Positions 6,793 to 54,377 are shown, counted from the first letter of the stretch. The stretch is 64,000 nucleotides of DNA from a bacterium (GCA_963641945.1 CAVIDW010000004.1:2462-66461), one strand, 5' to 3'. Numbers and translations are program-made. Notes: generated by a model from the sequence alone, not told the origin.

Positions 6793-9141
6793 TTAATCTT
6801 CCCATTTCCAATTTTTAATTTCAGGCATATCTTCACCATATTCATGAATATATTCTTTATGTTCAATTAATTTATTTTTACACCACTCATTTAATGAAGT
6901 TCTCTTATCGCCTAACTCAGGTAAATATCTTAAGGCATCCATAACTAAATTAAATCTATCCAATTTATTTTGAACTTTCATATCAAAAGTTGTAGTAATA
7001 GTTCCTTCTTCTAAATATCCATGAACGTGTAAATTTTTATTAGTTCTCTTATATGCTAATTGATGAATTAAATGTGGATATCCATGAAACGCAAATATAA
7101 TTGGTTTATCTTTAGTAAATATACTATCATACTCCGCCTCATCAAGTCCATGTGGATGATTTTCGTTACTCTCTAGTTTCATTAAATCAATCACATTAAC
7201 TACTCTAATTTTTAATTCAGGGAAATTTTCTCTTAATATCTTAACAGCAGCTAAAGTTTCTATTGTTGGAGTTTCACCTGCACAAGCCATTACTAAATCA
7301 GGAGTATTTCCATCATCATTACTAGCAAATTTCCAAATGCCTAAACCTTTAGTACAATGTTTAATTGCTTCATCCATAGTTAACCATTGTGGTCTTGGAT
7401 GTTTAGAAGCAACAATTACATTAATATAATTTTTAGTTCTAATACAATGATCAAAACATGAAATTAAAGTATTAGTATCAGGTGGTAAATATATTCTAAC
7501 AGTATCAGCTTTTTTAGTTACTAAATGATTTAAGAATCCGGGATCTTGATGTGTAAATCCATTATGATCTTGTTGCCATACATATGAAGCTAAAATGTAA
7601 TTCAAAGATGCAATATCTTGTCTCCATGGTAATTCTCTACAAACTTTTAACCATTTAGCATGTTGAGAAGCCATAGAATCAACTATTCTAATAAATGCTT
7701 CATAACTATGAAAGAATCCATGTCTACCTGTTAACAAATATCCTTCTAACATTCCTTCACAAGCATGTTCGGATAAAACTGAATCAATTACTCTACCAGA
7801 ATGACTTAAGAATTCATCAGTATTATAAGTAATTCCATTCCATTGTCTATTAGTTACTTCAAATACATGATTTAATCTATTAGATAAAGCTTCATCAGGA
7901 CCAAATATTCTAAAATTCTTTTTATCTTCATTTAATTTTACAATATCTCTTACAAATCTACCTAACTCCATCATATCTTGAGTTACAACTTCACCAGGTT
8001 TCTTTATATCAATAGCATAATCTCTAAAGTCAGGAATATTTAATTCTTCTAATAACTTTCCACCATTAGCATGAGGATTCATACCCATTCTATAATTTCC
8101 AGTAGGAGCCATAGCTCTTAATTCTTTCCTTAATTTACCCTTTTCATCAAATAACTCTTCAGGTTTGTAACTTCTAAGCCAGGCTTCTAAAACTTTTACA
8201 TTTTCTGGATGATTTTTATCAACTAAAATTGGTACTTGATGAGATCTAAATGAACCTTCAATTTGTTTTTTATCAACCATTTTAGGACCAGTCCATCCTT
8301 TAGGTGTTTTAAGAATTATCATTGGAAATTTAGCTCTTTTATTTAATTTAGATTTTGACTTAATTTCTTTAATTTGAGCTATACATCTATCCAATGTTTT
8401 AGCCATCATTTCATGCATTTTAGCAGTAGTTGGAGCTTCAACTATATATGGAACATACCCACATCCTTGAAAATACTTTATTAATTCATCCTTAGGCATC
8501 CTAGCAAATATAGTTGGATTAGCTATTTTATATCCATTCAAATGTAATATAGGTAAAACCACTCCATCAGTTAAAGGATCTATAATTTTATTTAATTGCC
8601 ATGAAGCTGCTAAAGGTCCAGTTTCAGATTCACCATCGCCTACAACACATGCAACTATTAAATTAGGATTATCAAGAACAGCACCATATGAGTGAGCAAG
8701 TGAATAACCAAGTTCTCCTCCTTCATTAATACTACCGGGAGTTTCAGGAGCAACATGAGAAGATATTCCACCTGGGAAACTAAATTGTTTACATAATTTT
8801 TTTAATCCCTCTTCATCCTCAGTAATATTAGGATAAATTTCACTATAACTTCCTTCTAAGTATACATTTGACACTATAGATTGTCCACCATGTCCTGGTC
8901 CGGAAACATAAATCATATCCAATTTATTTTTCTTTATAATTCTATTCAAATGAACATATATAAAATTTTGACCAGGAGCTGTACCCCAGTGACCTACTAC
9001 ATTAGGTTTGATATGATCTAAAGTTAATCTTTCTTTTAATAATGGATTATCCTTTAAATATAATTGAGCAACTGATAAATAATTTGCAGCTCTAAAATAA
9101 GCATCTATATTTTTCAATTCTTTTTCATTTAATGCTTTCAT
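6793..9141 (-). CDS. xfp: Xylulose-5-phosphate/fructose-6-phosphate phosphoketolase
   Basis: 782 aa. Characteristic [18 protein letters not shown] and EGGELGY motifs, with full-length colinearity to phosphoketolases. Confidence 0.95.
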
Positions 9142-9813: not shown

Positions 9814-10278
9814 ATGTATTTTGATGAGGACAATAATTACTTTATTGATGAAAATGAATTTAACTTTAAAACAGATATAGATTCAAATATAAATATTAAT
9901 GTAGATAGTATTAATTTTAATAGAGATAATACTCTTTATGATCCAAATGAAGGATTTAATAAAGGAAATATGTTTAAGAACTTATATTCTAAATATAAAA
10001 ATTATGTTTACAATTTAAAAGTAAATAATATAAAAGATAGATTACTTTATACAATTCAAATGTATACTTTTGCTCTAAAAGATTTAAATTTATATTTAGA
10101 TGTTTATCCAGAAGATAGAAATATATTAAAAAAATTTCAAGAATATAAAAGAAAACTAGAAGAATATAAAAACAAATATATTAATGAATATGGTCCATTA
10201 TATTCTAATAATGTAAATAGTAGTGACAAGTGGACATGGATAAATAATCCTTGGCCATGGGATAAGGGAGGAAATTAA
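9814..10278 (+). CDS. cotJB: Spore coat protein CotJB, apparently fused to a CotJA-like N-terminal segment
   Basis: The C-terminal half (LLYTIQMYTFALKDLNLYLDVYPEDR) is CotJB-like. The N-terminal YDPNEGFNKGNMFKNLYSKY resembles the CotJA signature. The gene lies directly upstream of cotJC. Confidence 0.7.
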   Translation: MYFDEDNNYFIDENEFNFKTDIDSNININVDSINFNRDNTLYDPNEGFNKGNMFKNLYSKYKNYVYNLKVNNIKDRLLYTIQMYTFALKDLNLYLDVYPEDRNILKKFQEYKRKLEEYKNKYINEYGPLYSNNVNSSDKWTWINNPWPWDKGGN

Positions 10279-10279
10279 T

Positions 10280-10840
10280 ATGTTTAAATATGAAAAAATG
10301 TTAGAATATCCAGTTAATGTAAAGAAAAAAGATTTAAGAATGGCTAAATTATTAGTAGCACAATTTGGGGGACCAGATGGAGAACTAGGCGCATCGCTAA
10401 GATATCTAACTCAAAGATTTACAATGCCTGATAATAAAGGAAAAGCACTATTATCTGATATTGGAACTGAAGAACTTGGTCATGTTGAAATGATATGTAC
10501 AATGATTAGACAATTAATTAAAGATGCAAGTATAGAAGAAGTTAAAAAAGCAGGCTTAGAAGCATGGTATACAGAACACAATAAAGGGATATTTCCAATG
10601 GATCCAAACGGAATTTCATTTACATCTGCATATATCGCATGTTCGGGGAATCCCATAGTTGATTTACATGAAGATATAGCCGCAGAAGAAAAAGCAAGAG
10701 CTACATATGAAAACCTAATGGATTTAACAGATGATGAAAGTATTCTTGCCCCTCTAAGTTTCTTAAGGCAAAGAGAAATAGTTCATTATACAAGATTTAA
10801 AGAATTACTAGAATATTATCAAAAGAAAGGCTATAAATAG
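10280..10840 (+). CDS. cotJC: Spore coat protein CotJC (manganese catalase family)
   Basis: 186 aa. It carries LRYLTQRF...EELGHVEM and REIVH motifs of the Mn-catalase/CotJC family. Its start is 2 nt after the cotJB stop. Confidence 0.9.
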   Translation: MFKYEKMLEYPVNVKKKDLRMAKLLVAQFGGPDGELGASLRYLTQRFTMPDNKGKALLSDIGTEELGHVEMICTMIRQLIKDASIEEVKKAGLEAWYTEHNKGIFPMDPNGISFTSAYIACSGNPIVDLHEDIAAEEKARATYENLMDLTDDESILAPLSFLRQREIVHYTRFKELLEYYQKKGYK

Positions 10841-13700: not shown

Positions 13701-13776
13701 GCCCGATTAGCTCAGTCGGTAGAGCGCACGGCTGTTAACCGTTAGGTCGTAGGTCCGAGTCCTACATCGGGCGCCA
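13701..13776 (+). tRNA. tRNA-Asn (anticodon GTT), CCA encoded
   Basis: A cloverleaf is readable. The acceptor stem is GCCCGAT/ATCGGGC and the D arm is GCTC..GAGC. The anticodon loop is CTGTTAA, the T arm is GTAGG-TCCGAGT-CCTAC, and the 3' end is GCCA. Confidence 0.9.
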
Positions 13777-15574: not shown

Positions 15575-15883
15575 TTAACTTAATTCTTTAAGTTTACCAG
15601 AATACTTAGTATACGATTTAGTTATTTTATTTTCTTCTTCAGGAGTTAGTGTATACCATCCTTTATAAAACATTAAATTAAATATATCTCGAGCCATATC
15701 TTTAGTTTCTTCAAAAATATTTATAATATTTTTATATAAATATTTATTACTCATTTCATTTATTGCAACACTATAACTATTAGATATACTCTTTTCACAT
15801 AACATTATGTCATTTAATAAATCTTCATCATTCAAGTATTCATCTCTATTAATTACTTCTTTTTCATTTTTTATTTCTTTCAT
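15575..15883 (-). CDS. CotF-family spore coat protein
   Basis: 102 aa. LLNDIMLCEKSISNSYSVAINEMSNKYLY...ARDIFNLMFYKGWY fits the Coat F domain. Confidence 0.65.
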   Translation of the reverse strand: MKEIKNEKEVINRDEYLNDEDLLNDIMLCEKSISNSYSVAINEMSNKYLYKNIINIFEETKDMARDIFNLMFYKGWYTLTPEEENKITKSYTKYSGKLKELS

Positions 15884-15891
15884 AATATCTC

Positions 15892-16089
15892 CTATTCTAA
15901 AATACTTAACAATTCTTTATAATGTTTGGCATGTAATTTCTTAGCTTTAATTAATATATCTTTAACATCACTATCACAAGCATATTCTAAAAAAATATAT
16001 ATTTTTTTATTCATTATAAAATTCCAATTCATCATATCTTCTATATACAAAAGATCTTTAACTGAAATTATATTTGGTGTTTCTTTCAT
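15892..16089 (-). CDS. Small hypothetical protein, possibly a Coat F-like partner
   Basis: 65 aa, lying 8 nt upstream of the CotF-like gene on the same strand. Only weak family resemblance. Confidence 0.35.
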   Translation of the reverse strand: MKETPNIISVKDLLYIEDMMNWNFIMNKKIYIFLEYACDSDVKDILIKAKKLHAKHYKELLSILE

Positions 16090-16640: not shown

Positions 16641-16669
16641 AAAAAGTTCACAATCAATGTGAACTTTTA
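16641..16669. terminator. Bidirectional intrinsic terminator between convergent genes
   Basis: agttcaca-atcaa-tgtgaact hairpin flanked by an A-run and a T-run. It sits between hsp20 and the surface-protein gene. Confidence 0.7.
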
Positions 16670-18264
16670 TTATGTTTAAATAAATCTTTTTTTTCACAAA
16701 AAATTCCCAAGAAAAACATTAAAACACAAATAATAGTAAAAATTATATAAATAAAGACATTATTTTTTTCATCTTGTCTTACAACAAGAGCATATGACTT
16801 TACAGTACCATCAGTAGATTTAACATTTACCAAAACAAGTGAATTATTTTTTAATTTATTATTTCCTTCAATTGTAACAATACTATCAGAATCTTCAGGA
16901 ACAGCATTAATTTCAAGAGAAGATTCATCACTACTTAATTCTAAATAATAAAGATTATTATCATTATCAAAACTAATATCATGATTTGAAACACTAAATT
17001 CACTTAAATTAGTATTTGAAGATAAATATTTTTCTACTCTATTAATATTAATTTTATATGTCCTTTCAATTTCATTTTCAGCTAAAACTTTTATTTCAAC
17101 TACATCTATATCTTTGCTTAAATCAATCTCTCTTTCGCCACAACCATTCGCAAAACTTGCTTTTTCACTATTAAGTATAGAACTAATTGTAATTTTATCA
17201 ATTGTTTTTAAGACATAAAGCGTATATTCTAAAACTTCAGAATCAAATTTTTGATTTAATTTACCATCAGAAACAGTTAACGATTTCAAAGTATTATCAG
17301 AATCTCTACCATCACTTCTACTAATAGAAATTTCATAGTTTTTTTTACTTTCATTTTCGGCAGTAACAACAACATTATAAGTATTAGTACCATACTTTAC
17401 CCTAATTTTACCAGTACCACTAACTTTTGCTTTACTATCACTAGCAATAGCATCTATTACTAAAGTATCTTTATCAGTACTAATACTATATTTTGTGTTA
17501 GTGGAAGAAAAGATAGGATACAATGTTTCACCTTCTATAGACAAAAATTTAAGGGTACTATCATTATTTCTATTATCATTTCTTGTAATAATAACCTGAT
17601 AAGTTTTTTTAGAACCATTTTCAGCAGTAACAACAACATTATAAGTATTAGTGCCATACTTAACACTTACTTTTCCAGTTCCACTAACTTTTGCTTTACT
17701 ATCATTAGCAACAGCTTTAATAGTAACAGCAGATTTATCAGTTGTCAAACTAACTTTTCCGTTGCTCATATTGACAGAAGTACCATCAATATTTAAAGAT
17801 TTTAGAGAATTATCAGTTGATGGAACTCTTATACTTAATGATAAAGTATTTGAACTAATATTAACAGAAGCAAAATTACCACTAGAATCTCTTGCAAAAA
17901 CAGGTTTAATAACTGTTATCATTTCATTACTAGAAACACTTTTAGCCTTTATAACAAAATTTTTAACAACTACAAATGAACCAGATTTTGCATTACTTGA
18001 GTCTGTATATAATGAAATTACTCCATTATTAGCACTACCTTGAAAATCATTATTATGTTCAATAGAAACCAAACTCAATGCACTTGATAATTTAATAGTA
18101 CCAGAAACACCTGTAACACCATAATCAGAATTAGCAATAATTTTACATTTAGTAGTTTCATCAACAAGTAAACTAGTTTTTTCACATGAAATTTTCAAAT
18201 TATTTGAAGCATTAACAAATAGCGGAAAAAAACATAATAGCAAAACAAATAACTTATTTTTCAT
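16654..18264 (-). CDS. Membrane-anchored surface protein: signal peptide, cohesin-like N-terminal domain, about 4 cadherin-like beta-sandwich repeats, C-terminal TM anchor
   Basis: 536 aa. Signal peptide MKNKLFVLLLCFFPLFVNA. The first domain (...VTGVSGTIKLSSALSLVSIE...GVISLYTD...) is cohesin-like. The repeats read L(K/S)SL.I.G....(F/M)......Y.......V.I.A...D..AKVSGTG......G.N....VVTAENGS.K.Y.I.I.R. The tail is hydrophobic. Confidence 0.65.
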   Translation of the reverse strand: MKNKLFVLLLCFFPLFVNASNNLKISCEKTSLLVDETTKCKIIANSDYGVTGVSGTIKLSSALSLVSIEHNNDFQGSANNGVISLYTDSSNAKSGSFVVVKNFVIKAKSVSSNEMITVIKPVFARDSSGNFASVNISSNTLSLSIRVPSTDNSLKSLNIDGTSVNMSNGKVSLTTDKSAVTIKAVANDSKAKVSGTGKVSVKYGTNTYNVVVTAENGSKKTYQVIITRNDNRNNDSTLKFLSIEGETLYPIFSSTNTKYSISTDKDTLVIDAIASDSKAKVSGTGKIRVKYGTNTYNVVVTAENESKKNYEISISRSDGRDSDNTLKSLTVSDGKLNQKFDSEVLEYTLYVLKTIDKITISSILNSEKASFANGCGEREIDLSKDIDVVEIKVLAENEIERTYKININRVEKYLSSNTNLSEFSVSNHDISFDNDNNLYYLELSSDESSLEINAVPEDSDSIVTIEGNNKLKNNSLVLVNVKSTDGTVKSYALVVRQDEKNNVFIYIIFTIICVLMFFLGIFCEKKDLFKHNKSSH

Positions 18265-18275
18265 ATTATACCTCC

Positions 18276-20711
18276 TTATATATTATTTCTAAATCGACTA
18301 TATAACATTGATATATCCCCTATATCAAGTCCATCAGTATCATTTACTTCTGCAGACTTTAAATAACAAAAATCTAAATTATTAGTAATTCCTAAAGAAT
18401 TATTTCTAAAAACACTATATGCAGCTGAAACATCACCAATATCTAATACACCATTGCCATTTACATCCCCATAAACAATTAAATAAAAATTATTTTCACC
18501 AATACTATATTTCATACAAGAAGAAATATTGCTACCCCTGTCATCAACTAATTTATCATTTTGATATAAACTAATAGATTGATTACTATCAGACTTAGAC
18601 AATAAATCACTATACATACTTCCAACATTTAGTCCAGAAAGATAATCTTTATCATTATTCTTTAAAATATTAATAGATTGATCAAAATTATAATATGGTA
18701 CAGCAAGTATATTAACATTAATTTCCTTAAAAATTAAGTTATTTTCTAATGATACGATTTTGACTACAGAATTTCCAACTTTTTTTCCATATATTATATC
18801 ATTTACTACATTAATATTATCATTTGATAATTCATATTTAATCATTCTATTACTTGCATTAAATGGAGTCAAATTATATATTTTTTTTAAATCATACTGT
18901 TCATTTTCATATATTGAAATATCTAACTCAGATATACTTATATCTTCAACATAAATATACTCATTTAAGTTAAATTTTATCGTTTTAGTAATATAACCAT
19001 ATTTTACAACTAGATTATATTCTCCACTATATTCTTTATCATTTCTAAAAAAACTAAAACTATTTAACGAATCAACTTTAATAGAAAAATTATTTGTAAC
19101 ATCTACTCCATTTTCATTAGTAATACTTATTTCATAATCACTATTATTAATATTTGAAGTATCTAAATTAACGTTATAAATATCTTTTCCATCAACATAT
19201 AAAATATCTTTTATATCAAAATCATAATCTAAATTATCCGTATATGCTTTTATTGATATTATTACATTTGAATCAGACAAATTATACCACTCTTTACCAT
19301 CTCTAGAAATAAAGCATATTCCTTCATTTAACCTTGTATTTTCATAACCACTTACATCTCCGCTTTGAACTCCCATTGAATATGGAGTATCTCCAGAATA
19401 TTTTACTATTATAGAAAAATCATCACTAACCAATATTGGAGTATCTAATTTAATTGTATAATAACCACCAGAATCAGTACTTCCACTATATATCAATTTT
19501 CTATTATTTAAATCATTACTATCAGAATAATAAACTAAATAGTCAGTTTTACCATCAAAACCAATACTTATTTCCTTTAATATTTGATTATTATCAGACT
19601 TTTTTTTAAATACATTAGCTCCCCACGTTATATTACTATTAGAATAACCATAACTAGTATTATATCCAAGATTATCATAATAATATACATTATCTTCAAT
19701 ATCAAAATCTATATTATCATAAACTGAAAAATTAGTACAAATTCTACTATCCTCATATGATATATAAAAGTATCCATTATCTCTACTAGAAGTACCCCAT
19801 GAATTTTTTATAATAAATGCACCCTTATTTGATGGTGTTATATCACCTCTAAACAAAGATGTATCCACATTATCATCCCATCCAATAATACTAACCGAAT
19901 GATTAGAATACTCAGTCCCATTATAATAATACATATTATTATCACTAAGATATGCATTAGAATCATAATATGAAGCAGAAACAGCTCCATATTGCATAAT
20001 TAACTCTTTTATCTTTTTAATAGACGTTGAATTACATGAATCATAATTATAAAATTTTATATCATTAATATCAACTGCACTTTTTTTATTTAATTCACTT
20101 AAAGATATCTCTTTTAAATGATTGTTTTTAGTTTTAACAGATGAATAATAACTATCAAATGGAAAATCACTTTCTAAAATTAATCCACCATTTCTCATCA
20201 AATATCCAGAAGCATAATATTTATTACCAGCACTATCAACAATTTTATTATTAATTCCATTTTCATTAACACCATCTAAAAAATAATTATATCCTGTAGA
20301 ATAAGCCATATATAATTCAGATAAATCAAATGATTGATTATAGTTCTTTAATATATTTGATTCAATAGAAGACACAATGCTAAATAACCAACATGTACCA
20401 GTTAAACGTTGATTTTTAACATCAGTAACAAATGAATTACCATCAATATCTCTTAAGTCATATTTTTCAGGCAATATATTTTCACTTACAATATCAAAAG
20501 ATTTTAAACTCTTCTTTTTTAATAAATTGTTATATGTGCTATCCTTACAAATTTTTGGCATTATACTATTCTTTTTTTCTTCATTAGATAACATGCTCCA
20601 TTTAATATATTCGTCACTATAAACACACTTACTAGGAATTTCTGAAGCAAAAATAGAGTTAAAATAAATAAAATAAAATAAACAAAATAATAATATGTAT
20701 CTTCTTTTCAT
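18276..20711 (-). CDS. Secreted papain-family (C1) cysteine peptidase with Big_2-like domain and C-terminal dockerin
   Basis: The ATG at 20711 gives the signal peptide MKRRYILLFCLFYF.... Catalytic motifs are NQRLTGTCWLFS (Cys), NHSVSIIGWDD (His) and IIKNSWG. The C-terminus has a duplicated Ca-binding segment, GDVNGNGVLDIGDVSAAYSVF / VNDTDGLDIGDISMLYSRF. Confidence 0.85.
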   Translation of the reverse strand: MKRRYILLFCLFYFIYFNSIFASEIPSKCVYSDEYIKWSMLSNEEKKNSIMPKICKDSTYNNLLKKKSLKSFDIVSENILPEKYDLRDIDGNSFVTDVKNQRLTGTCWLFSIVSSIESNILKNYNQSFDLSELYMAYSTGYNYFLDGVNENGINNKIVDSAGNKYYASGYLMRNGGLILESDFPFDSYYSSVKTKNNHLKEISLSELNKKSAVDINDIKFYNYDSCNSTSIKKIKELIMQYGAVSASYYDSNAYLSDNNMYYYNGTEYSNHSVSIIGWDDNVDTSLFRGDITPSNKGAFIIKNSWGTSSRDNGYFYISYEDSRICTNFSVYDNIDFDIEDNVYYYDNLGYNTSYGYSNSNITWGANVFKKKSDNNQILKEISIGFDGKTDYLVYYSDSNDLNNRKLIYSGSTDSGGYYTIKLDTPILVSDDFSIIVKYSGDTPYSMGVQSGDVSGYENTRLNEGICFISRDGKEWYNLSDSNVIISIKAYTDNLDYDFDIKDILYVDGKDIYNVNLDTSNINNSDYEISITNENGVDVTNNFSIKVDSLNSFSFFRNDKEYSGEYNLVVKYGYITKTIKFNLNEYIYVEDISISELDISIYENEQYDLKKIYNLTPFNASNRMIKYELSNDNINVVNDIIYGKKVGNSVVKIVSLENNLIFKEINVNILAVPYYNFDQSINILKNNDKDYLSGLNVGSMYSDLLSKSDSNQSISLYQNDKLVDDRGSNISSCMKYSIGENNFYLIVYGDVNGNGVLDIGDVSAAYSVFRNNSLGITNNLDFCYLKSAEVNDTDGLDIGDISMLYSRFRNNI

Positions 20712-20815
20712 AACTTCATTTACTACACCTATTATAATAATTATATCAAAAACGCGAATATCAAACAACTAAAAATAATTAAAAAAACAACAAAAACATA
20801 TATCAAAAAAAAAGG

Positions 20816-22576
20816 TTATTTTGACCTGTTAATCCATTTAATTAAATCATTTATATTTATTTTATATAAAATACCTTTCACATTTTCGAAACCAATATGT
20901 TTAAACACTAATTGAGATTTTTCATTTTTGTAACTTATGGTACCATAAATATCATTATATAAATCTTTATTACTATTATTTACTAATTGTTGAAACATTT
21001 TTCTTAATATATTGTACTTACCTTGATATTCTTTTTTTATCTGTACTTCAGAAAGCATTAAACCATCATCCATATACATATAACATATAAATCCTATAAG
21101 TTCATGATTCATAAAACACAAAAGCATATTATAGCCTTTTGTATTTTTAATCATATTAACCCAAATATCATATGAATTATCAACTGAATCATTAGTATTG
21201 TTTATTAAATTATAATTATCAACTAATATTTGACACATATCTAAAAGAATTTCAGTTTTTGGTAAATTATCTTTATTAAAAAAATCATAGTTAAAATCTT
21301 CTTTAAATTCCGAAATTAAAAGATCACATAACTTGCAATATTCTTTAGGAGCTATTTCATAACTTCCTGTCTCTAATTGAAATTTTCCAGGACAATATCT
21401 ACATAATTTCTTTTTGTAGCAGTCTTTACATTTAGAATTAGTACTAAAATGAAGTTTACATATACCATTTCTAAACATATTTAATGCATCTAAAATCTTA
21501 TACTTTTTTATATTATATTTTTCATCAACAACAAGACATGGTTTTATATTACCATAACAATCTATAAATATACGATCTTTCCCAATTGAACATTGAAAAA
21601 CATTATCATTCATTTCAATATTTTCATTTAAATTATTAACTGCGTTTTTAAAATATTCTATATCATTTTCGTTCTTTTTAATTATTTTCACTATATCCTT
21701 TGATAACAATGTCTCTTCATTTCTTCTAAAAAGTCCTCCAGATACTTTTGGAAAAATATTATAATCATATCTAAATTCTGAATCATATTGCTGACAATAC
21801 TTTCTTATTCTTTCAAAATTATTAACATTTCTTTTTGTTAATACAGTTTTTAATTTCAAATTTATGTTATTACTTATTAAAAGATCTATATTACTATTAA
21901 TTACAGAAAAAGCATTTTTAAAATGAGTAAATTCTTCGTAAGTACGATCATCATATCCATAAATACTAATTTCAATTTGAAATGGTTTATATTCACTAAA
22001 TAACTTAATTATCTCATCATTAATTAAAAATCCATTTGTATTTATCCCAACACGCATTCCTTTTTTCTTTGCATATAAATACATTTTTTTAAAATCTTTA
22101 TTTAATAAAGGTTCTCCACCAGTCAGAATAACAGTATAACAGTTAATTTCAAGTAATTCATCAATTATTCGTTTATAAGATATAAAATCCATATCATTTT
22201 TCTTACTTTTATCAACATAGCAATGATCGCACTTAAATTGACATCGATTTGTTATTTCAATCATACAATTTGTTGCTTCATTTGATTCTAGCAAAACATT
22301 CAAATCACTATAAGTCAATTCTTCTGTTAATATATTTGATTTATCAAGTATATTCAATTCATTAATAAAATCATCATAATCATTCTCTAATATTTTTGTT
22401 TCAACTTTATAATGTTTTTTTAATATTTTAATCGTTTCAGTTTTACCATTATTAATATTATCAATAATTATTTTTCCAACACCATCAAATTTATAAATTA
22501 TATCAGAATCAAATTTGTTTATTAACAAAGTATTATTTTTTGTTCTTTTAATTAAATATTTTTCATCAAAATTCAT
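20816..22576 (-). CDS. Radical SAM/SPASM peptide-modifying enzyme with N-terminal PqqD-like RRE and C-terminal GNAT-like domain
   Basis: The likely start is the ATG at 22576, because the track start at 22609 lies inside the upstream hairpin. The RRE-like region reads FDGVGKIIIDNINNGKTETIKILKKHYKV...DYDDFINEL. The radical SAM cluster motif is CQFKCDHC. The SPASM-type Cys cluster reads CSIGKDRIFIDCYGNIKPC...CKDCYKKKLCRYCPG. The tail (ELIGFICYMY...SEVQIKKEYQGKYNILRKMFQQL) is GNAT motif A-like. Confidence 0.8.
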   Translation of the reverse strand: MNFDEKYLIKRTKNNTLLINKFDSDIIYKFDGVGKIIIDNINNGKTETIKILKKHYKVETKILENDYDDFINELNILDKSNILTEELTYSDLNVLLESNEATNCMIEITNRCQFKCDHCYVDKSKKNDMDFISYKRIIDELLEINCYTVILTGGEPLLNKDFKKMYLYAKKKGMRVGINTNGFLINDEIIKLFSEYKPFQIEISIYGYDDRTYEEFTHFKNAFSVINSNIDLLISNNINLKLKTVLTKRNVNNFERIRKYCQQYDSEFRYDYNIFPKVSGGLFRRNEETLLSKDIVKIIKKNENDIEYFKNAVNNLNENIEMNDNVFQCSIGKDRIFIDCYGNIKPCLVVDEKYNIKKYKILDALNMFRNGICKLHFSTNSKCKDCYKKKLCRYCPGKFQLETGSYEIAPKEYCKLCDLLISEFKEDFNYDFFNKDNLPKTEILLDMCQILVDNYNLINNTNDSVDNSYDIWVNMIKNTKGYNMLLCFMNHELIGFICYMYMDDGLMLSEVQIKKEYQGKYNILRKMFQQLVNNSNKDLYNDIYGTISYKNEKSQLVFKHIGFENVKGILYKININDLIKWINRSK

Positions 22577-22594
22577 AGTTTCACCAAACATCAT

Positions 22595-22629
22595 TATAAA
22601 AAAGAACATATTTTAAATATGTTCTTTTA
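22595..22629 (-). terminator. AU-rich hairpin plus U-run between the small ORF and the radical SAM gene (partial terminator/attenuator)
   Basis: aaaagaacatat-ttaaa-atatgttctttt is a perfect palindrome, followed on the minus strand by further T residues. It begins at the stop codon of the small ORF. Confidence 0.6.
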
Positions 22630-22859
22630 GCATCCATCACCTTCATTTCCTGTATAACTTTGTTGCCAACATCCCATATATATTTTCTTTGATGGTTTTA
22701 GTATTTGAACTCTTTTAGTTGTTGGTTTTTCATATTGAAACTCCTCTTCAATATAATTAGGCTTAAGTGCCAAACTTCCTTGAACATATACCAAAATTTC
22801 TACAACATTTTTTTCTTTAAGTAATGCTTCTTTATTGACTTAAAATTTTCTATGCTCAT
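22627..22859 (-). CDS. Candidate RiPP precursor peptide gene (start unresolved; apparent 1-nt frame discontinuity)
   Basis: A 70-codon stop-to-stop open frame (22839-22627) ends ...KPSKKIYMGCWQQSYTGNEGDGC*. It has no in-frame ATG or GTG before the internal Met at 22677; only the TTG at 22794 is available. An RBS-preceded ATG at 22859 and a GAGGAG-preceded ATG at 22733 are each one nucleotide out of frame. Confidence 0.4.
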
Positions 22860-22884
22860 TATATAAATGTTTCCTTTCAAACAC

Positions 22885-22913
22885 ATATTATCATACTTTA
22901 ATTTTAAAGTCAA
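22885..22913 (-). promoter_or_regulatory. SigA-type promoter for the small ORF / radical SAM operon
   Basis: On the minus strand: TTGACT (22913-22908), a 17-nt spacer, then an extended -10 TGaTAATAT (TAATAT at 22890-22885). Confidence 0.6.
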
Positions 22914-22931
22914 ATTAGATATACATCATTA

Positions 22932-24038
22932 TTATTTAGTAACATTAAATCTAAATAAGCAAATATCTCCATCTTGCATTACATAATCTTTACCCTCAAG
23001 TCTTGCTCTACCTGCTTCTTTAACTTTAACTTCACTTCCATATTGAATTAAATCATCATAACTCATAACTTCAGCTTTAATAAATCCTCTTTCAAAATCA
23101 GTATGAATCAATCCCGCACATTCTGGAGCTTTCATTCCATCTTTAAAAGTCCAAGCACGAACTTCGTCTTTACCAACAGTAAAGAAAGTTTTAAGTCCAA
23201 GTAAATGATATGTATTATGAATAAGTTGATCTAATCCACTATTAGCAATACCCAAATCAGCTAAAAATTCTTTTTTACTTTCTTCATCTAATTCAGATAA
23301 TTCGCTTTCAATCTTAGCACACATTAGTACTACAGAAGACTTTTCACGAGCTGCATACTCACGAACACTATTAACATATTTATTATCATTTGAAAGTAAA
23401 TCATCTTCACTTACATTAGCTAAATAAATAAAAGGTTTATTAGTAATTAAATTATATGTTTTAATTAATTTTGATTCTTTTTCATCAAATTCTTCTAATC
23501 TAAGCATTCTTCCTTCACTTAAAATACTTTGAAGTTTTTTAAGTAGTGCAACTTCATATAAGCCTTCTTTATCATTAGATGTAGTAGCTTTCTTTTCAAT
23601 TCTAGAAAGTCTACCTTCAACTATTTCTAAATCACTTAATATTAATTCATAATTAACAATTTCTATATCTCTTGTTGGATCAATGTTTCCTTCTACATGA
23701 ATAATATCTTTATTTTCAAAACATCTAACAACTTGAACAATAGCATCTACTTCACGAATATTGGCCAAAAACTTATTTCCAAGACCTTCTCCAGTAGATG
23801 CACCTTTTACAAGACCAGCTATATCAATAAATTCATATTGAGTAGCAATAACTCTTTCTGATTTATACATTTCATCTAATGTTTCAAGTCTTTTATCTGG
23901 AACAGTAACAACTCCAACATTAGGATCAATAGTCGCAAAAGGATAATTTGCAGCTAAAATATTCTTTTTGGTAATTGCATTAAACAATGTACTTTTACCT
24001 ACATTGGGTAAACCTATAATTCCAGCCTTAAGCGCCAT
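22932..24038 (-). CDS. ychF: Ribosome-binding ATPase YchF
   Basis: [26 protein letters not shown], and a C-terminal TGS/YchF domain (...[30 protein letters not shown]). The start at MALKAG is preferred. Confidence 0.95.
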
Positions 24039-25557
24039 AAACAACACCAGGCATTGAACCTATCCCAATTGGGACTCCTAATAAATACCAACCAACAATT
24101 ACTCCAACCCAAATAATAGTTATAAATGTTGAATATGGTACCATATATTTTATACTTCCGAACAAAGTAACCATCTCCCCTTTATTGTATTTTTCCATAA
24201 AAGCAATATAAATTACAAAATATGCTAATAACGGAGTCAATCCATTTGTTATTGAATCAGCAGCAGTATATATTACTTGTGAAAATTCAGGACTAATACT
24301 TGCATTCATAAGTAATGGTACAATACTACCTGATAAAATTAACCATTTAGTTTCTGAAATAGGACAAAACAAATTAACTAAAGCAACAAATAATATAACA
24401 GCTAATATAAGCCCAATTCCATTAAATCCTAATCCACCAATTACATTAGAAGTAAATGCAGTAATTACTTCACCAATCTTACTCTCTTCAAAAACATTAA
24501 TAAATAATGATGCAAAGAAAATAAGAACAATTATACTACCTATTCCATCTAAAGAATAACCAAGTGACTCAGCAATATCTTTATTATTTCTAATAGATTT
24601 AGTCATAAAACCATAACCAAGTCCAATAATTATAAAAAATAATGTAGCAATAAATATAAATCCTTTATTAAATAAAGAATTTGCTCCAAATAACATATCT
24701 ATATATCTTGTAGCGTTAGAATCTAATAAACCACCACTAAGTGGTAAACCAGGTATAATCATATAAACTATAATTAATAAATAAATAAAACCTGCTCCAA
24801 GTCCTATAATTAATCCTCTTAATTCTTTATTTGTTATTTTAATTTCTTCTTCCAAAGTTTCATACCTTGGTAATTTAGGCATAATCTTTTTCTCTGTTAA
24901 TTGTGTAAATACCAAAGAAACTAATATCAACACGAAAATCATAATATATAATGAAAAAAATATACCAATTTTATAATTAGGATCAATTATTTTAGCTGCA
25001 CTTAAAGTTATAGACAACAAACTACTATCATTAGCACTTAAGAATATATTAATTCCACTACCAAATGACAATGATGCAAACGAAGCAACTATTCCACCTA
25101 AAGGATTTCTTCTACCATATTTAAATAGCAAAGCACCAATAGGTAACATAATAACATAACCAATATCACCTAATAGTGAAAACAATAAACACATAAATAC
25201 CAATATAAATGTTATTGTATTTTTTTTAGAATTTCTAGTTAATAGTGTAAAGAATGATTTCATAAATCCACTCTTTTCAAGTACACCAATACCTATCAAA
25301 ACTATAATCAATGTAGATAATGGAGCAAAATTAACAAATCCACTTACCGCAGTACTTACAATATGTTTAATACCACTTATACTAAATAAATTTTTAACTT
25401 CTACAACATTATTTACCAAATCACCAGTAACTTTACTTACTGCAGCATATTCTGCTTGAACATTCAATAAATGCAAAAATCCACTTAAAAGTATAGTAAT
25501 AAAAGTTAAAATAATAAATGTCATAATAGGACTTAATTTTATTTTCTTCTTAAACAT
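24028..25557 (-). CDS. AbgT-family transporter (p-aminobenzoyl-glutamate transporter family)
   Basis: 509 aa and polytopic. NFAPLSTLIIVLIGIGVLEKSGF matches the conserved AbgT N-terminal motif. Confidence 0.75.
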   Translation of the reverse strand: MFKKKIKLSPIMTFIILTFITILLSGFLHLLNVQAEYAAVSKVTGDLVNNVVEVKNLFSISGIKHIVSTAVSGFVNFAPLSTLIIVLIGIGVLEKSGFMKSFFTLLTRNSKKNTITFILVFMCLLFSLLGDIGYVIMLPIGALLFKYGRRNPLGGIVASFASLSFGSGINIFLSANDSSLLSITLSAAKIIDPNYKIGIFFSLYIMIFVLILVSLVFTQLTEKKIMPKLPRYETLEEEIKITNKELRGLIIGLGAGFIYLLIIVYMIIPGLPLSGGLLDSNATRYIDMLFGANSLFNKGFIFIATLFFIIIGLGYGFMTKSIRNNKDIAESLGYSLDGIGSIIVLIFFASLFINVFEESKIGEVITAFTSNVIGGLGFNGIGLILAVILFVALVNLFCPISETKWLILSGSIVPLLMNASISPEFSQVIYTAADSITNGLTPLLAYFVIYIAFMEKYNKGEMVTLFGSIKYMVPYSTFITIIWVGVIVGWYLLGVPIGIGSMPGVVYGA

Positions 25558-54302: not shown

Positions 54303-54377
54303 TGGCAGGGGTAGAAGGACTCGAACCCTCCCCAACGGTTTTGGAGACCGGCATGCTACCACTGACACCATACCCCT
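54303..54377 (-). tRNA. tRNA-Trp (anticodon CCA), CCA encoded
   Basis: The reverse complement folds as a cloverleaf. The acceptor stem is AGGGGTA/TACCCCT and the anticodon loop is CTCCAAA. The T arm is GAGGG-TTCGAGT-CCTTC and the 3' end is GCCA. Confidence 0.9.

Follow-up and report, generated by a model that had tools for sequence, protein, structure and literature searches.

Is a papain-like protease held on the cell surface by the membrane protein encoded next to it? The question is raised by two adjacent genes in a 64,000-nucleotide stretch of DNA with a G+C content of about 25% (GCA_963641945.1 CAVIDW010000004.1:2462-66461; hereafter the window), which comes from an uncultured low-GC gut Firmicute. 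An earlier reading of this DNA, the original prediction, had taken the end of the protease for a dockerin and the first domain of its neighbour for a cohesin-like domain, and had proposed a dedicated docking pair. We found a divergent dockerin at the C-terminus of the protease and a divergent cohesin at the N-terminus of the anchor protein. With a probability of about 0.72 the two genes constitute a bicistronic surface-display cassette, in which the protease dockerin would plug into the anchor cohesin and hold the protease on the cell surface. The two genes and the two modules are:

18276-20711, minus strand: gene for a Cwp84-like C1A cysteine protease, predicted to be secreted, with a C-terminal dockerin, 811 aa (open reading frame (ORF), Pfam, PDB match); stop codon at 18276-18278
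16654-18264, minus strand: gene for the membrane anchor (scaffold), predicted type I, 536 aa (ORF, homologues)
18279-18473, minus strand: divergent dockerin, protease residues 747-811, two calcium-loop/helix repeats (family hidden Markov model (HMM), alignment, structure model)
17824-18207, minus strand: divergent cohesin module, anchor residues 20-147, with invariant C27 and C40 (AlphaFold2, Foldseek, hhalign, profile search)

The dockerin and cohesin modules

A dockerin was recognized by two tandem repeats of about 22 residues, each with a 12-residue calcium loop (D or N at positions 1, 3, 5, 9, and 12) followed by a helix. Two such repeats, DVNGNGVLDIGDVSAAYSVFRNN and EVNDTDGLDIGDISMLYSRFRNN, lie in the last 65 aa of the protease and are identical at 14 of 24 positions by manual count. 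The loop of repeat 1 (DVNGNGVLDIGD) is canonical, D-V-N-G-N-G-V-L-D-I-G-D, with D1, N3, N5, D9, and D12. The repeats also agree at the positions that determine specificity in type I dockerins, I-G at 10/11 and Y-S at 17/18, and their identity, including these positions, amounts to the internal symmetry typical of dockerins. G748, D749, D760, and D799 were invariant in 29 family members; G748-D749 is the opening Gly-Asp of loop 1, while D760 and D799 are the position-12 Asp of the two loops.

Most close homologues of the protease (37-46% identity and lower) were found to carry PF00404 at the same C-terminal position, and the window tail aligned column for column with these Pfam-positive orthologue dockerins. 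The PF00404-positive dockerins of relatives were combined into an HMM that left out the window species; it scored the tail at 30.8 bits (p ~1e-11), and the family dockerin profile matched dockerins in the PDB at E-values from 6e-23 to 1e-8. The AlphaFold2 model of residues 672-811 had a mean predicted local distance difference test score (pLDDT) of 93.1 and a predicted template modelling score (pTM) of 0.86; in it, strands precede three helices, which span 87-101, 110-116, and 126-139 in the numbering of the model. The best 10 Foldseek matches of this model were all dockerins, nine of them with target-normalised TM-scores of 0.63-0.84 and the double-dockerin chain 8x39 with 0.43, at a root mean square deviation of 2.4-3.1 Å over about 65 columns. 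The E-values were weak (0.03-0.6), as is to be expected of a module of 65 residues. When a dockerin HMM was run over all window ORFs of at least 70 aa the protease was the sole match (E 1e-17). The duplicated C-terminal dockerin of the original prediction is borne out by the orthologue HMM, the invariant loop residues and the fold of the model; the tail is a divergent dockerin.

Homologues of the anchor are built alike: the signal peptide is followed by a domain of some 125 residues, then by cadherin-like repeats and finally by a transmembrane helix. The first domain is a Pfam cohesin in the homologues P0063, P0066, P0071, P0079, P0080, P0085, and P0091. In order to avoid circularity, profile A6 was built from 27 two-cysteine N-terminal domains of which none was Pfam-positive, and profile A7 from 7 Pfam-certified cohesins. 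Comparison of the two with hhalign gave a probability of 96.9% (E 2e-10, 120 columns). An exhaustive HMMER search with A6 in 1.84 billion representatives yielded 1221 proteins at E<=1e-3, of which 582 reached E<=1e-10, with the match nearly always at about residues 22-140, right after the signal peptide. The multi-copy matches include P0278, P0290, P0395, and P0401 (E 1e-25 to 1e-17); these are multi-cohesin scaffoldins according to Pfam (98-270 bits), and SLH repeats or a dockerin are present as well in three of the four. When A6 was compared with the PDB, the first three matches were the Ruminococcus flavefaciens cohesins 5m2o, 5aoz, and 5n5p, at a marginal E of ~0.01.

The window domain was modelled by AlphaFold2 as an all-beta fold (pLDDT 87.4, pTM 0.80), in keeping with the elongated jelly-roll sandwich of cohesins. 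Among its 20 best Foldseek matches 19 were cohesins, of types I to III as well as non-cellulosomal, with TM-scores of 0.62-0.74. The best match was the non-cellulosomal Clostridium perfringens cohesin 2jh2 (E 1.2e-5, TM-score 0.71-0.74), and type I cohesins came next in the list, among them the cohesins of OlpA and OlpC, two anchors with a single cohesin each. A cohesin-family HMM matched the anchor only (E 2e-25) among the window ORFs of at least 70 aa, and the HMMs found no other cohesin or dockerin in these ORFs of the 64-kb window. Altogether, the anchor N-terminal domain is a divergent cohesin. The original prediction had placed a cohesin-like domain at about 17815-18204 and had made its docking proposal depend on a cohesin fold there; both the fold and profile homology to cohesins were found, for a module at 17824-18207.

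Invariant in the Pfam-negative cohesin subfamily, C27 and C40 are missing from the aligned Pfam-positive cohesins; a disulfide between the two may link the first and second strands. This two-cysteine clade comprises about 1200 representatives at 50% identity, and in the architectures examined its cohesin is borne on a cadherin-like stalk, with a membrane helix at the C-terminus. A phmmer search of the PDB with the whole anchor returned noise only, and the whole-anchor alignment contained no stretch conserved enough for a scan of loci.

Gene arrangement in the window and in other genomes

The gene coordinates and features of the original prediction were accurate when ORFs and Pfam matches were examined again. 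The end of the protease gene, the start of the anchor gene and the end of the pair are marked by two elements:

18265-18275, minus strand: intercistronic spacer of 11 nucleotides with a GGAGG ribosome-binding site at 18271-18275 (sequence)
16642-16668, minus strand: bidirectional terminator hairpin of 11 pairs, common to the end of the cassette and the convergent hsp20 gene (folding)

The protease stop codon TAA (18278-18276) is followed by GGAGG (18275-18271), six bases and the anchor ATG at 18264, in agreement with the 11-nucleotide gap described originally. The hsp20 gene comes after the anchor gene. The hairpin between them has a folding energy of -12.2 kcal/mol (z -3.9), and none of 200 shuffled sequences was equally stable; by terminator scan and folding it was the sole strong terminator. 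The pair is operon-like because of the 11-nucleotide gap with GGAGG and because the only strong terminator lies 3' of the anchor gene.

The same protease-anchor pair is carried by sibling species. Seven further independent loci were found in which the gene of a dockerin protein lies directly beside the gene of a cohesin/cadherin-like/transmembrane anchor, and none of the anchor loci examined (eight independent lineages) lacked a dockerin gene immediately next to the anchor. The cargo varies between a C1 protease, a GH43 glycosidase, a leucine-rich repeat (LRR) protein and a small protein, while the dockerin is constant. In L004, where the protease is 46% identical and the genomic context is another one, the protease has a Pfam-positive dockerin and the anchor gene follows 2 nucleotides later, with an N-terminal domain that matches the cohesin profile at 95%. 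Two metagenome-assembled genomes (MAGs) of 'uncultured Bacilli' (L006 and L007) have the same protease-then-anchor arrangement; in L007 the protease is assigned Dockerin_1 by Pfam (38.5 bits) and the adjacent gene product Cohesin (42.5 bits) and Cadherin-like. The protease-dockerin gene of L172 overlaps the start of its anchor gene. In a Clostridia MAG (L058) the gene of a 193-aa Pfam cohesin precedes those of three dockerin proteins, the protease among them, and L169 and L170 encode dockerin proteins of about 275 aa directly upstream of their anchors. In L171 (L171:2272-11183) a GH43-dockerin gene lies upstream and an LRR-dockerin gene downstream of a single anchor gene; the dockerins of the two proteins are near-identical and the remainder is unrelated. 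The predicted recognition positions of the dockerins vary from cassette to cassette, as expected of locally matched pairs.

A metagenome scan with the peptidase alignment returned, among the matches listed, mostly distant archaeal and environmental C1 peptidases that lacked dockerins, and L152 alone was informative. This high-G+C sediment contig (5788-8526) encodes a protein with Peptidase_C1, Lectin_like, and Dockerin_1, then a 176-aa Pfam cohesin (44.9 bits). The N-terminus of that cohesin protein resembles a lipoprotein signal (LLGQAC), and the contig represents an independent occurrence of the protease-cohesin pairing. A conserved operon was observed in L169:138-5783 and L170:1153-6650. 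It encodes five to six small secreted or membrane proteins that had no Pfam match and ends in the dockerin protein and the cohesin anchor, to which L170 adds a 187-aa cohesin-transmembrane protein; the operon may encode an unknown surface apparatus.

The homologues of the two genes are therefore co-located in distant genomes, in some of which Pfam calls the modules on both genes, a co-location on which the original prediction had also made its case depend. The argument for docking rests on this conserved gene neighbourhood, which we consider strong. The idea of a dedicated docking pair is backed by the module identities and the conserved adjacency, whereas the binding itself is what we infer from them.

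Remaining domains and the radical SAM neighbour

The other parts of the two proteins, and the genes and region upstream of them, are:

20646-20711, minus strand: predicted Sec signal peptide of the protease, residues 1-22, MKRRYILLFCLFYFIYFNSIFA, then SE (read from sequence)
19737-20474, minus strand: papain-family catalytic domain, residues 80-325, with Q101, C107, H271, and N303 (PF00112)
19239-19688, minus strand: lectin-like domain as in Cwp84, residues 342-491 (PF18560, 76.1 bits)
18699-19238, minus strand: spacer, residues 492-671, probably two Ig-like domains (judged by Big_2 in orthologues)
18474-18698, minus strand: small beta-rich module, residues 672-746, predicted to pack on the dockerin (AlphaFold2 model)
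18208-18264, minus strand: predicted signal peptide of the anchor, residues 1-19, ending VNA, then SN (read from sequence)
16765-17814, minus strand: four cadherin-like beta-sandwich domains, residues 151-500, putative stalk (PF12733, four stretches, E 4.4e-19)
16696-16758, minus strand: C-terminal transmembrane helix, residues 503-523, followed by the basic tail EKKDLFKHNKSSH (sequence)
22932-24047, minus strand: ychF, first of four minus-strand genes in order
20816-22609, minus strand: radical SAM/SPASM protein fused to a GNAT domain, 597 aa, between ychF and the protease gene
20712-20815, minus strand: region 5' of the protease gene, 104 nucleotides; its proximal part, including TGATATAAT at 20740-20748, is kept in a sibling devoid of the radical SAM gene

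The protease is 811 aa long when counted from MKRRY; the mechanical ORF reaches a TTG at 20768. The original description of an 812-aa peptidase with C1 motifs was correct as to the catalytic identity but not as to the length. Peptidase_C1 (PF00112) scored 74.5 bits over residues 80-325, compared to a Pfam cutoff of 20.7, and Q101, C107, H271, and N303 were invariant in the 29-sequence family alignment. The best PDB matches by sequence were those of Cwp84 from Clostridioides difficile (4d59 and 4ci7; E 3e-22, phmmer 81.8 bits), with an alignment that extends to residue 437. In Cwp84 the anchoring is in cis, through three CWB2 repeats that bind the cell wall. No Pfam match to CWB2 was found in the window protease, the C-terminus of which is the dockerin. 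Pfam directly finds no domain in the spacer at residues 492-671; in orthologues this position is occupied by Big_2 (PF02368). The beta-rich module is kept in most dockerin-bearing relatives, and as modelled, the module together with the dockerin resembles the X-module/dockerin dyads of type II and type III systems. The order of the parts would be pro-region, papain domain, lectin-like domain, Ig-like spacers, beta module and two-repeat dockerin.

In the anchor the local HMM boundaries of the cadherin-like domains were 151-231, 235-318, 323-412, and 417-500. A hydrophobic C-terminal helix followed by basic residues was present in all family anchors examined, and in some of them a long tail comes after it. 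Pfam and the reading of the sequence agree with the signal peptide, four cadherin-like repeats and C-terminal membrane anchor that had been proposed.

The gene order also confirmed that protease and anchor genes lie downstream of the radical SAM gene on the same strand, the radical SAM and protease genes being 104 nucleotides apart. The original prediction had derived from this that the protease could be the leader peptidase of a ribosomally synthesised and post-translationally modified peptide (RiPP), a suggestion that the siblings did not support, as the pair is intact where the radical SAM gene is absent or truncated. In sibling L001 (82% identity) ychF is directly followed by protease and anchor, and there is no radical SAM gene. 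In sibling L086 (88%) a 215-aa ORF (L086:4794-5441) lies between ychF and the protease gene; its product shares 89% identity with residues 378-597 of the window fusion protein, and the ORF represents a 5'-truncated remnant. L001 keeps the last bases of the lost gene plus a hairpin (7860-8012). Because L086 keeps the 3' third of the gene, and L001 its last bases and the hairpin, we conclude that it was deleted in the siblings and that it is decaying in this lineage. Insertion of the gene in the window was considered and rejected, since the remnants in L086 and L001 point to loss.

Immediately 5' of the protease start, the window and L001 share a conserved sequence that includes TGATATAAT. The -10-like element originally noted at about 20735 is present, as TGATATAAT (20748-20740) plus TATAAT (20736-20731), but has no evidential value: promoter-like matches in this 25% GC window (77) were no commoner than in shuffled sequences (72.2 ± 9.3). 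In the siblings a weak hairpin with a T-run separates the upstream gene from the protease gene (-6.6 and -8.1 kcal/mol). A G-to-T change abolishes this hairpin in the window and, because it is broken, read-through from the radical SAM gene is possible there. Such read-through would be co-transcription by accident of decay and not a sign of shared function. The distant cassettes L004, L006, L007, L152, and L172 have no radical SAM neighbour, and the peptidase was not co-conserved with maturase and precursor genes. Judged by synteny, the protease-anchor pair is not tied to the neighbouring radical SAM gene.

The radical SAM/SPASM enzyme itself has a weakly PqqD-like N-terminus in addition to the fused C-terminal GNAT domain. 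Small ORFs lie between ychF and its gene, at 22627-22913 on the minus strand: MSIENFKSIKKHYLKKKML, MKNQQLKEFKY (with GAGGAG before it), and MGCWQQSYTGNEGDGC. They are possible precursor peptides. Elsewhere in the window the spore-coat genes cotJB, cotJC (Mn-catalase), and cotF are located within 9814-10840 and 15575-16089, near parA/parB, ychF and DUF951; the host probably forms spores, and this region has the look of conserved chromosomal backbone and not of a mobile element. tRNA genes at 13701-13773 (plus strand) and 54306-54377 (minus strand) were the sole Rfam matches in the window.

Proposed docking, its alternatives and known systems

In the proposed mechanism both proteins would be exported by Sec. 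The anchor would adopt a type I topology, with its C-terminal helix in the membrane, the four cadherin-like domains forming a stalk through the wall and the single cohesin outermost. The dockerin, stabilised by the packed beta module, would bind calcium and dock on the cohesin, and the Cwp84-like protease would thereby be held non-covalently at the surface. Docking in trans would then be the counterpart of the CWB2 repeats that act in cis in Cwp84. The role of the protease may be the maturation of surface proteins, as with Cwp84, or, given the lectin-like domain, the breakdown of host or dietary (glyco)proteins.

A number of observations weigh against this reading. The anchor did not match PF00963 (threshold 24.1 bits), either whole or as residues 20-153, and the last 77 aa of the protease alone did not match PF00404 (threshold 22.9 bits), even at E<=10 in both cases; NCBIfam and Pfam scans of whole proteins and isolated modules found neither cohesin nor dockerin. 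The original prediction had named these two Pfam models as its check, which alone would have given a false negative. The dockerin sequence alone matched the PDB by phmmer at E 0.15-3 only, with seven of eight matches being dockerins. Repeat 2 (EVNDTDGLDIGD) has E1, N3, T5, D9, and D12, and the second calcium loop may be degenerate. One non-cohesin, the CLIPPER isopeptide stalk domain 9ifr, occurred lower in the match lists of the cohesin; this domain, likewise a beta-sandwich and of much the same size, counts for less than the cohesin evidence. Finally, many Clostridia loci have a dockerin-bearing C1 protease and no cohesin within about 7 kb, so that protease-anchor adjacency is not universal for the protease family, and the scan covered 64 kb of the genome, with other cohesins or dockerins possible elsewhere. 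By analogy with Ruminococcus bromii, the Clostridia proteases presumably use scaffoldins encoded at other loci.

Such loci (L010, L017, L018, L028, L046, L049, and L059) are what would be expected if the modules were real but not mutual partners, with the protease docking on a cohesin from another locus or another organism, the anchor receiving other cargo and the adjacency reflecting co-regulation of surface proteins only. The R. bromii peptidase dockerins indeed bind several scaffoldin cohesins encoded elsewhere (PMC4611034), and a view of 64 kb suits this explanation too. We nevertheless find it unlikely: the dockerin gene abuts the anchor in 8 of 8 independent lineages examined despite differing cargo, the two unrelated cargoes of L171 share near-identical dockerins, recognition positions differ per cassette as for local pairs, and the window holds no further cohesin or dockerin. 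The anchor could also mainly be a substrate of the protease, matured by it like the SlpA precursor that Cwp84 cleaves, and no docking scaffold. Cwp84 is the closest solved relative of the protease, the anchor is an abundant type of multi-domain surface protein, and its inter-domain linkers (e.g., RNDNRNNDS) may be cleavage sites. This leaves unexplained why GH43, LRR, and small non-enzymatic cargo, always with a dockerin, occur in the same position, and why the protease retains a dockerin and the anchor a cohesin. We hold it to be improbable as the main function of the anchor, although cleavage would be compatible with docking and not an alternative to it.

The same strand, the 104-nucleotide gap and the read-through permitted by the broken hairpin would fit a protease acting as extracellular leader peptidase for a RiPP made by the radical SAM/SPASM-GNAT enzyme, which resembles peptide maturases and has small ORFs upstream of its gene. 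By synteny this idea is largely refuted and retains a very slim chance: protease and anchor are intact in L001 and L086, the sequence upstream of the protease is kept whether or not the radical SAM gene is present, and the five distant cassettes do without such a neighbour. Nor, to our knowledge, are any leader peptidases known that are large, multi-domain C1A proteases tethered to the surface. Hardly credible at all is a chance likeness, by which a generic Ig-like or isopeptide stalk domain and generic EF-hand-like repeats would have been mistaken for a cohesin and a dockerin. The missing Pfam matches and the presence of 9ifr among the other matches might suggest it, but the A6 search reached Pfam-certified multi-cohesin scaffoldins at E-values down to 1e-25, hhalign joined the two profiles at 96.9%, the tail aligns with the PF00404 domains of orthologues, and the top structural matches were consistently cohesins and dockerins. 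The bicistronic display cassette is accordingly the reading we retain.

If docking is true, uncultured gut Firmicutes display proteases, and in related cassettes glycosidases and LRR proteins, by means other than sortase, SLH, or CWB2, and the surface enzymes of such organisms could be annotated from adjacency. A cohesin clade of about 1200 members and its divergent dockerins are invisible to Pfam, so that counts of cohesin-dockerin systems in gut metagenomes are too low. Pairs of cohesin and dockerin that are small, orthogonal and matched by nature would be useful parts in the engineering of protein display. A tempting link between protease and radical SAM enzyme is removed. More tentatively, and with the odds slightly against it, the pair could be an instance of a widespread, undescribed 'plug-and-display' system of uncultured low-GC gut Firmicutes, in which a two-cysteine cohesin clade receives interchangeable cargo with matched dockerins from self-contained two- or three-gene cassettes and no cellulosome-like network is formed.

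The original prediction placed the pair outside a cellulosome context. This is correct, as there is one cohesin, a protease as cargo and no other cohesin or dockerin in the window, but it is not unprecedented. Non-cellulosomal cohesin-dockerin pairs are established (PMC4611034; Peer et al., 2009, as cited in PMC13487519) and dockerin peptidases have been published (PMC4611034; PMC2930009). In gut and rumen Firmicutes, as in the R. bromii amylosome and in R. flavefaciens, peptidases that include a cysteine protease bear dockerins, and some of these bind anchoring scaffoldins (PMC4611034; PMC2930009). These species differ from the window in having many dockerins, several sortase-anchored scaffoldins, cohesins that are seen by standard models, and no paired cargo-anchor cassettes. 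A full-text search of the literature for cohesin, dockerin and cadherin-like together found no report that describes the present architecture. Distinctive here are an anchor with a C-terminal transmembrane helix on a cadherin-like stalk instead of SLH repeats or a sortase signal, the layout of the cassette with cargo encoded beside its own anchor, a large clade of two-cysteine cohesins with matching divergent dockerins that standard models miss, and a Cwp84-type cargo with putative trans docking in place of cis wall-binding repeats.

The GH84 enzymes NagH and NagJ of Clostridium perfringens (2jh2, 2w1n, and 2ozn) likewise use cohesin and dockerin outside plant cell-wall degradation in a gut-associated Firmicute. 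Their modules join secreted glycosidases together, whereas those of the window would tether a protease to a membrane anchor. Cwp84 is, like the window protease, a C1A enzyme with a papain and lectin-like core at a Gram-positive surface. The identity between the two is low; the window protease lacks CWB2 and has Ig-like spacers, a dockerin and a separate anchor protein, and its host has no known S-layer substrate. OlpA and OlpC of Clostridium thermocellum (3ul4 and 4dh2), which are among the top fold matches of the window cohesin, are surface anchors with one cohesin that bind dockerin enzymes directly and involve no multi-cohesin scaffoldin. They carry SLH repeats, belong to a cellulosome producer and have glycoside hydrolases as cargo. 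In contrast, the window anchor has a transmembrane helix and a cadherin-like stalk, its predicted cargo is a protease, and the genes of cargo and anchor are adjacent.

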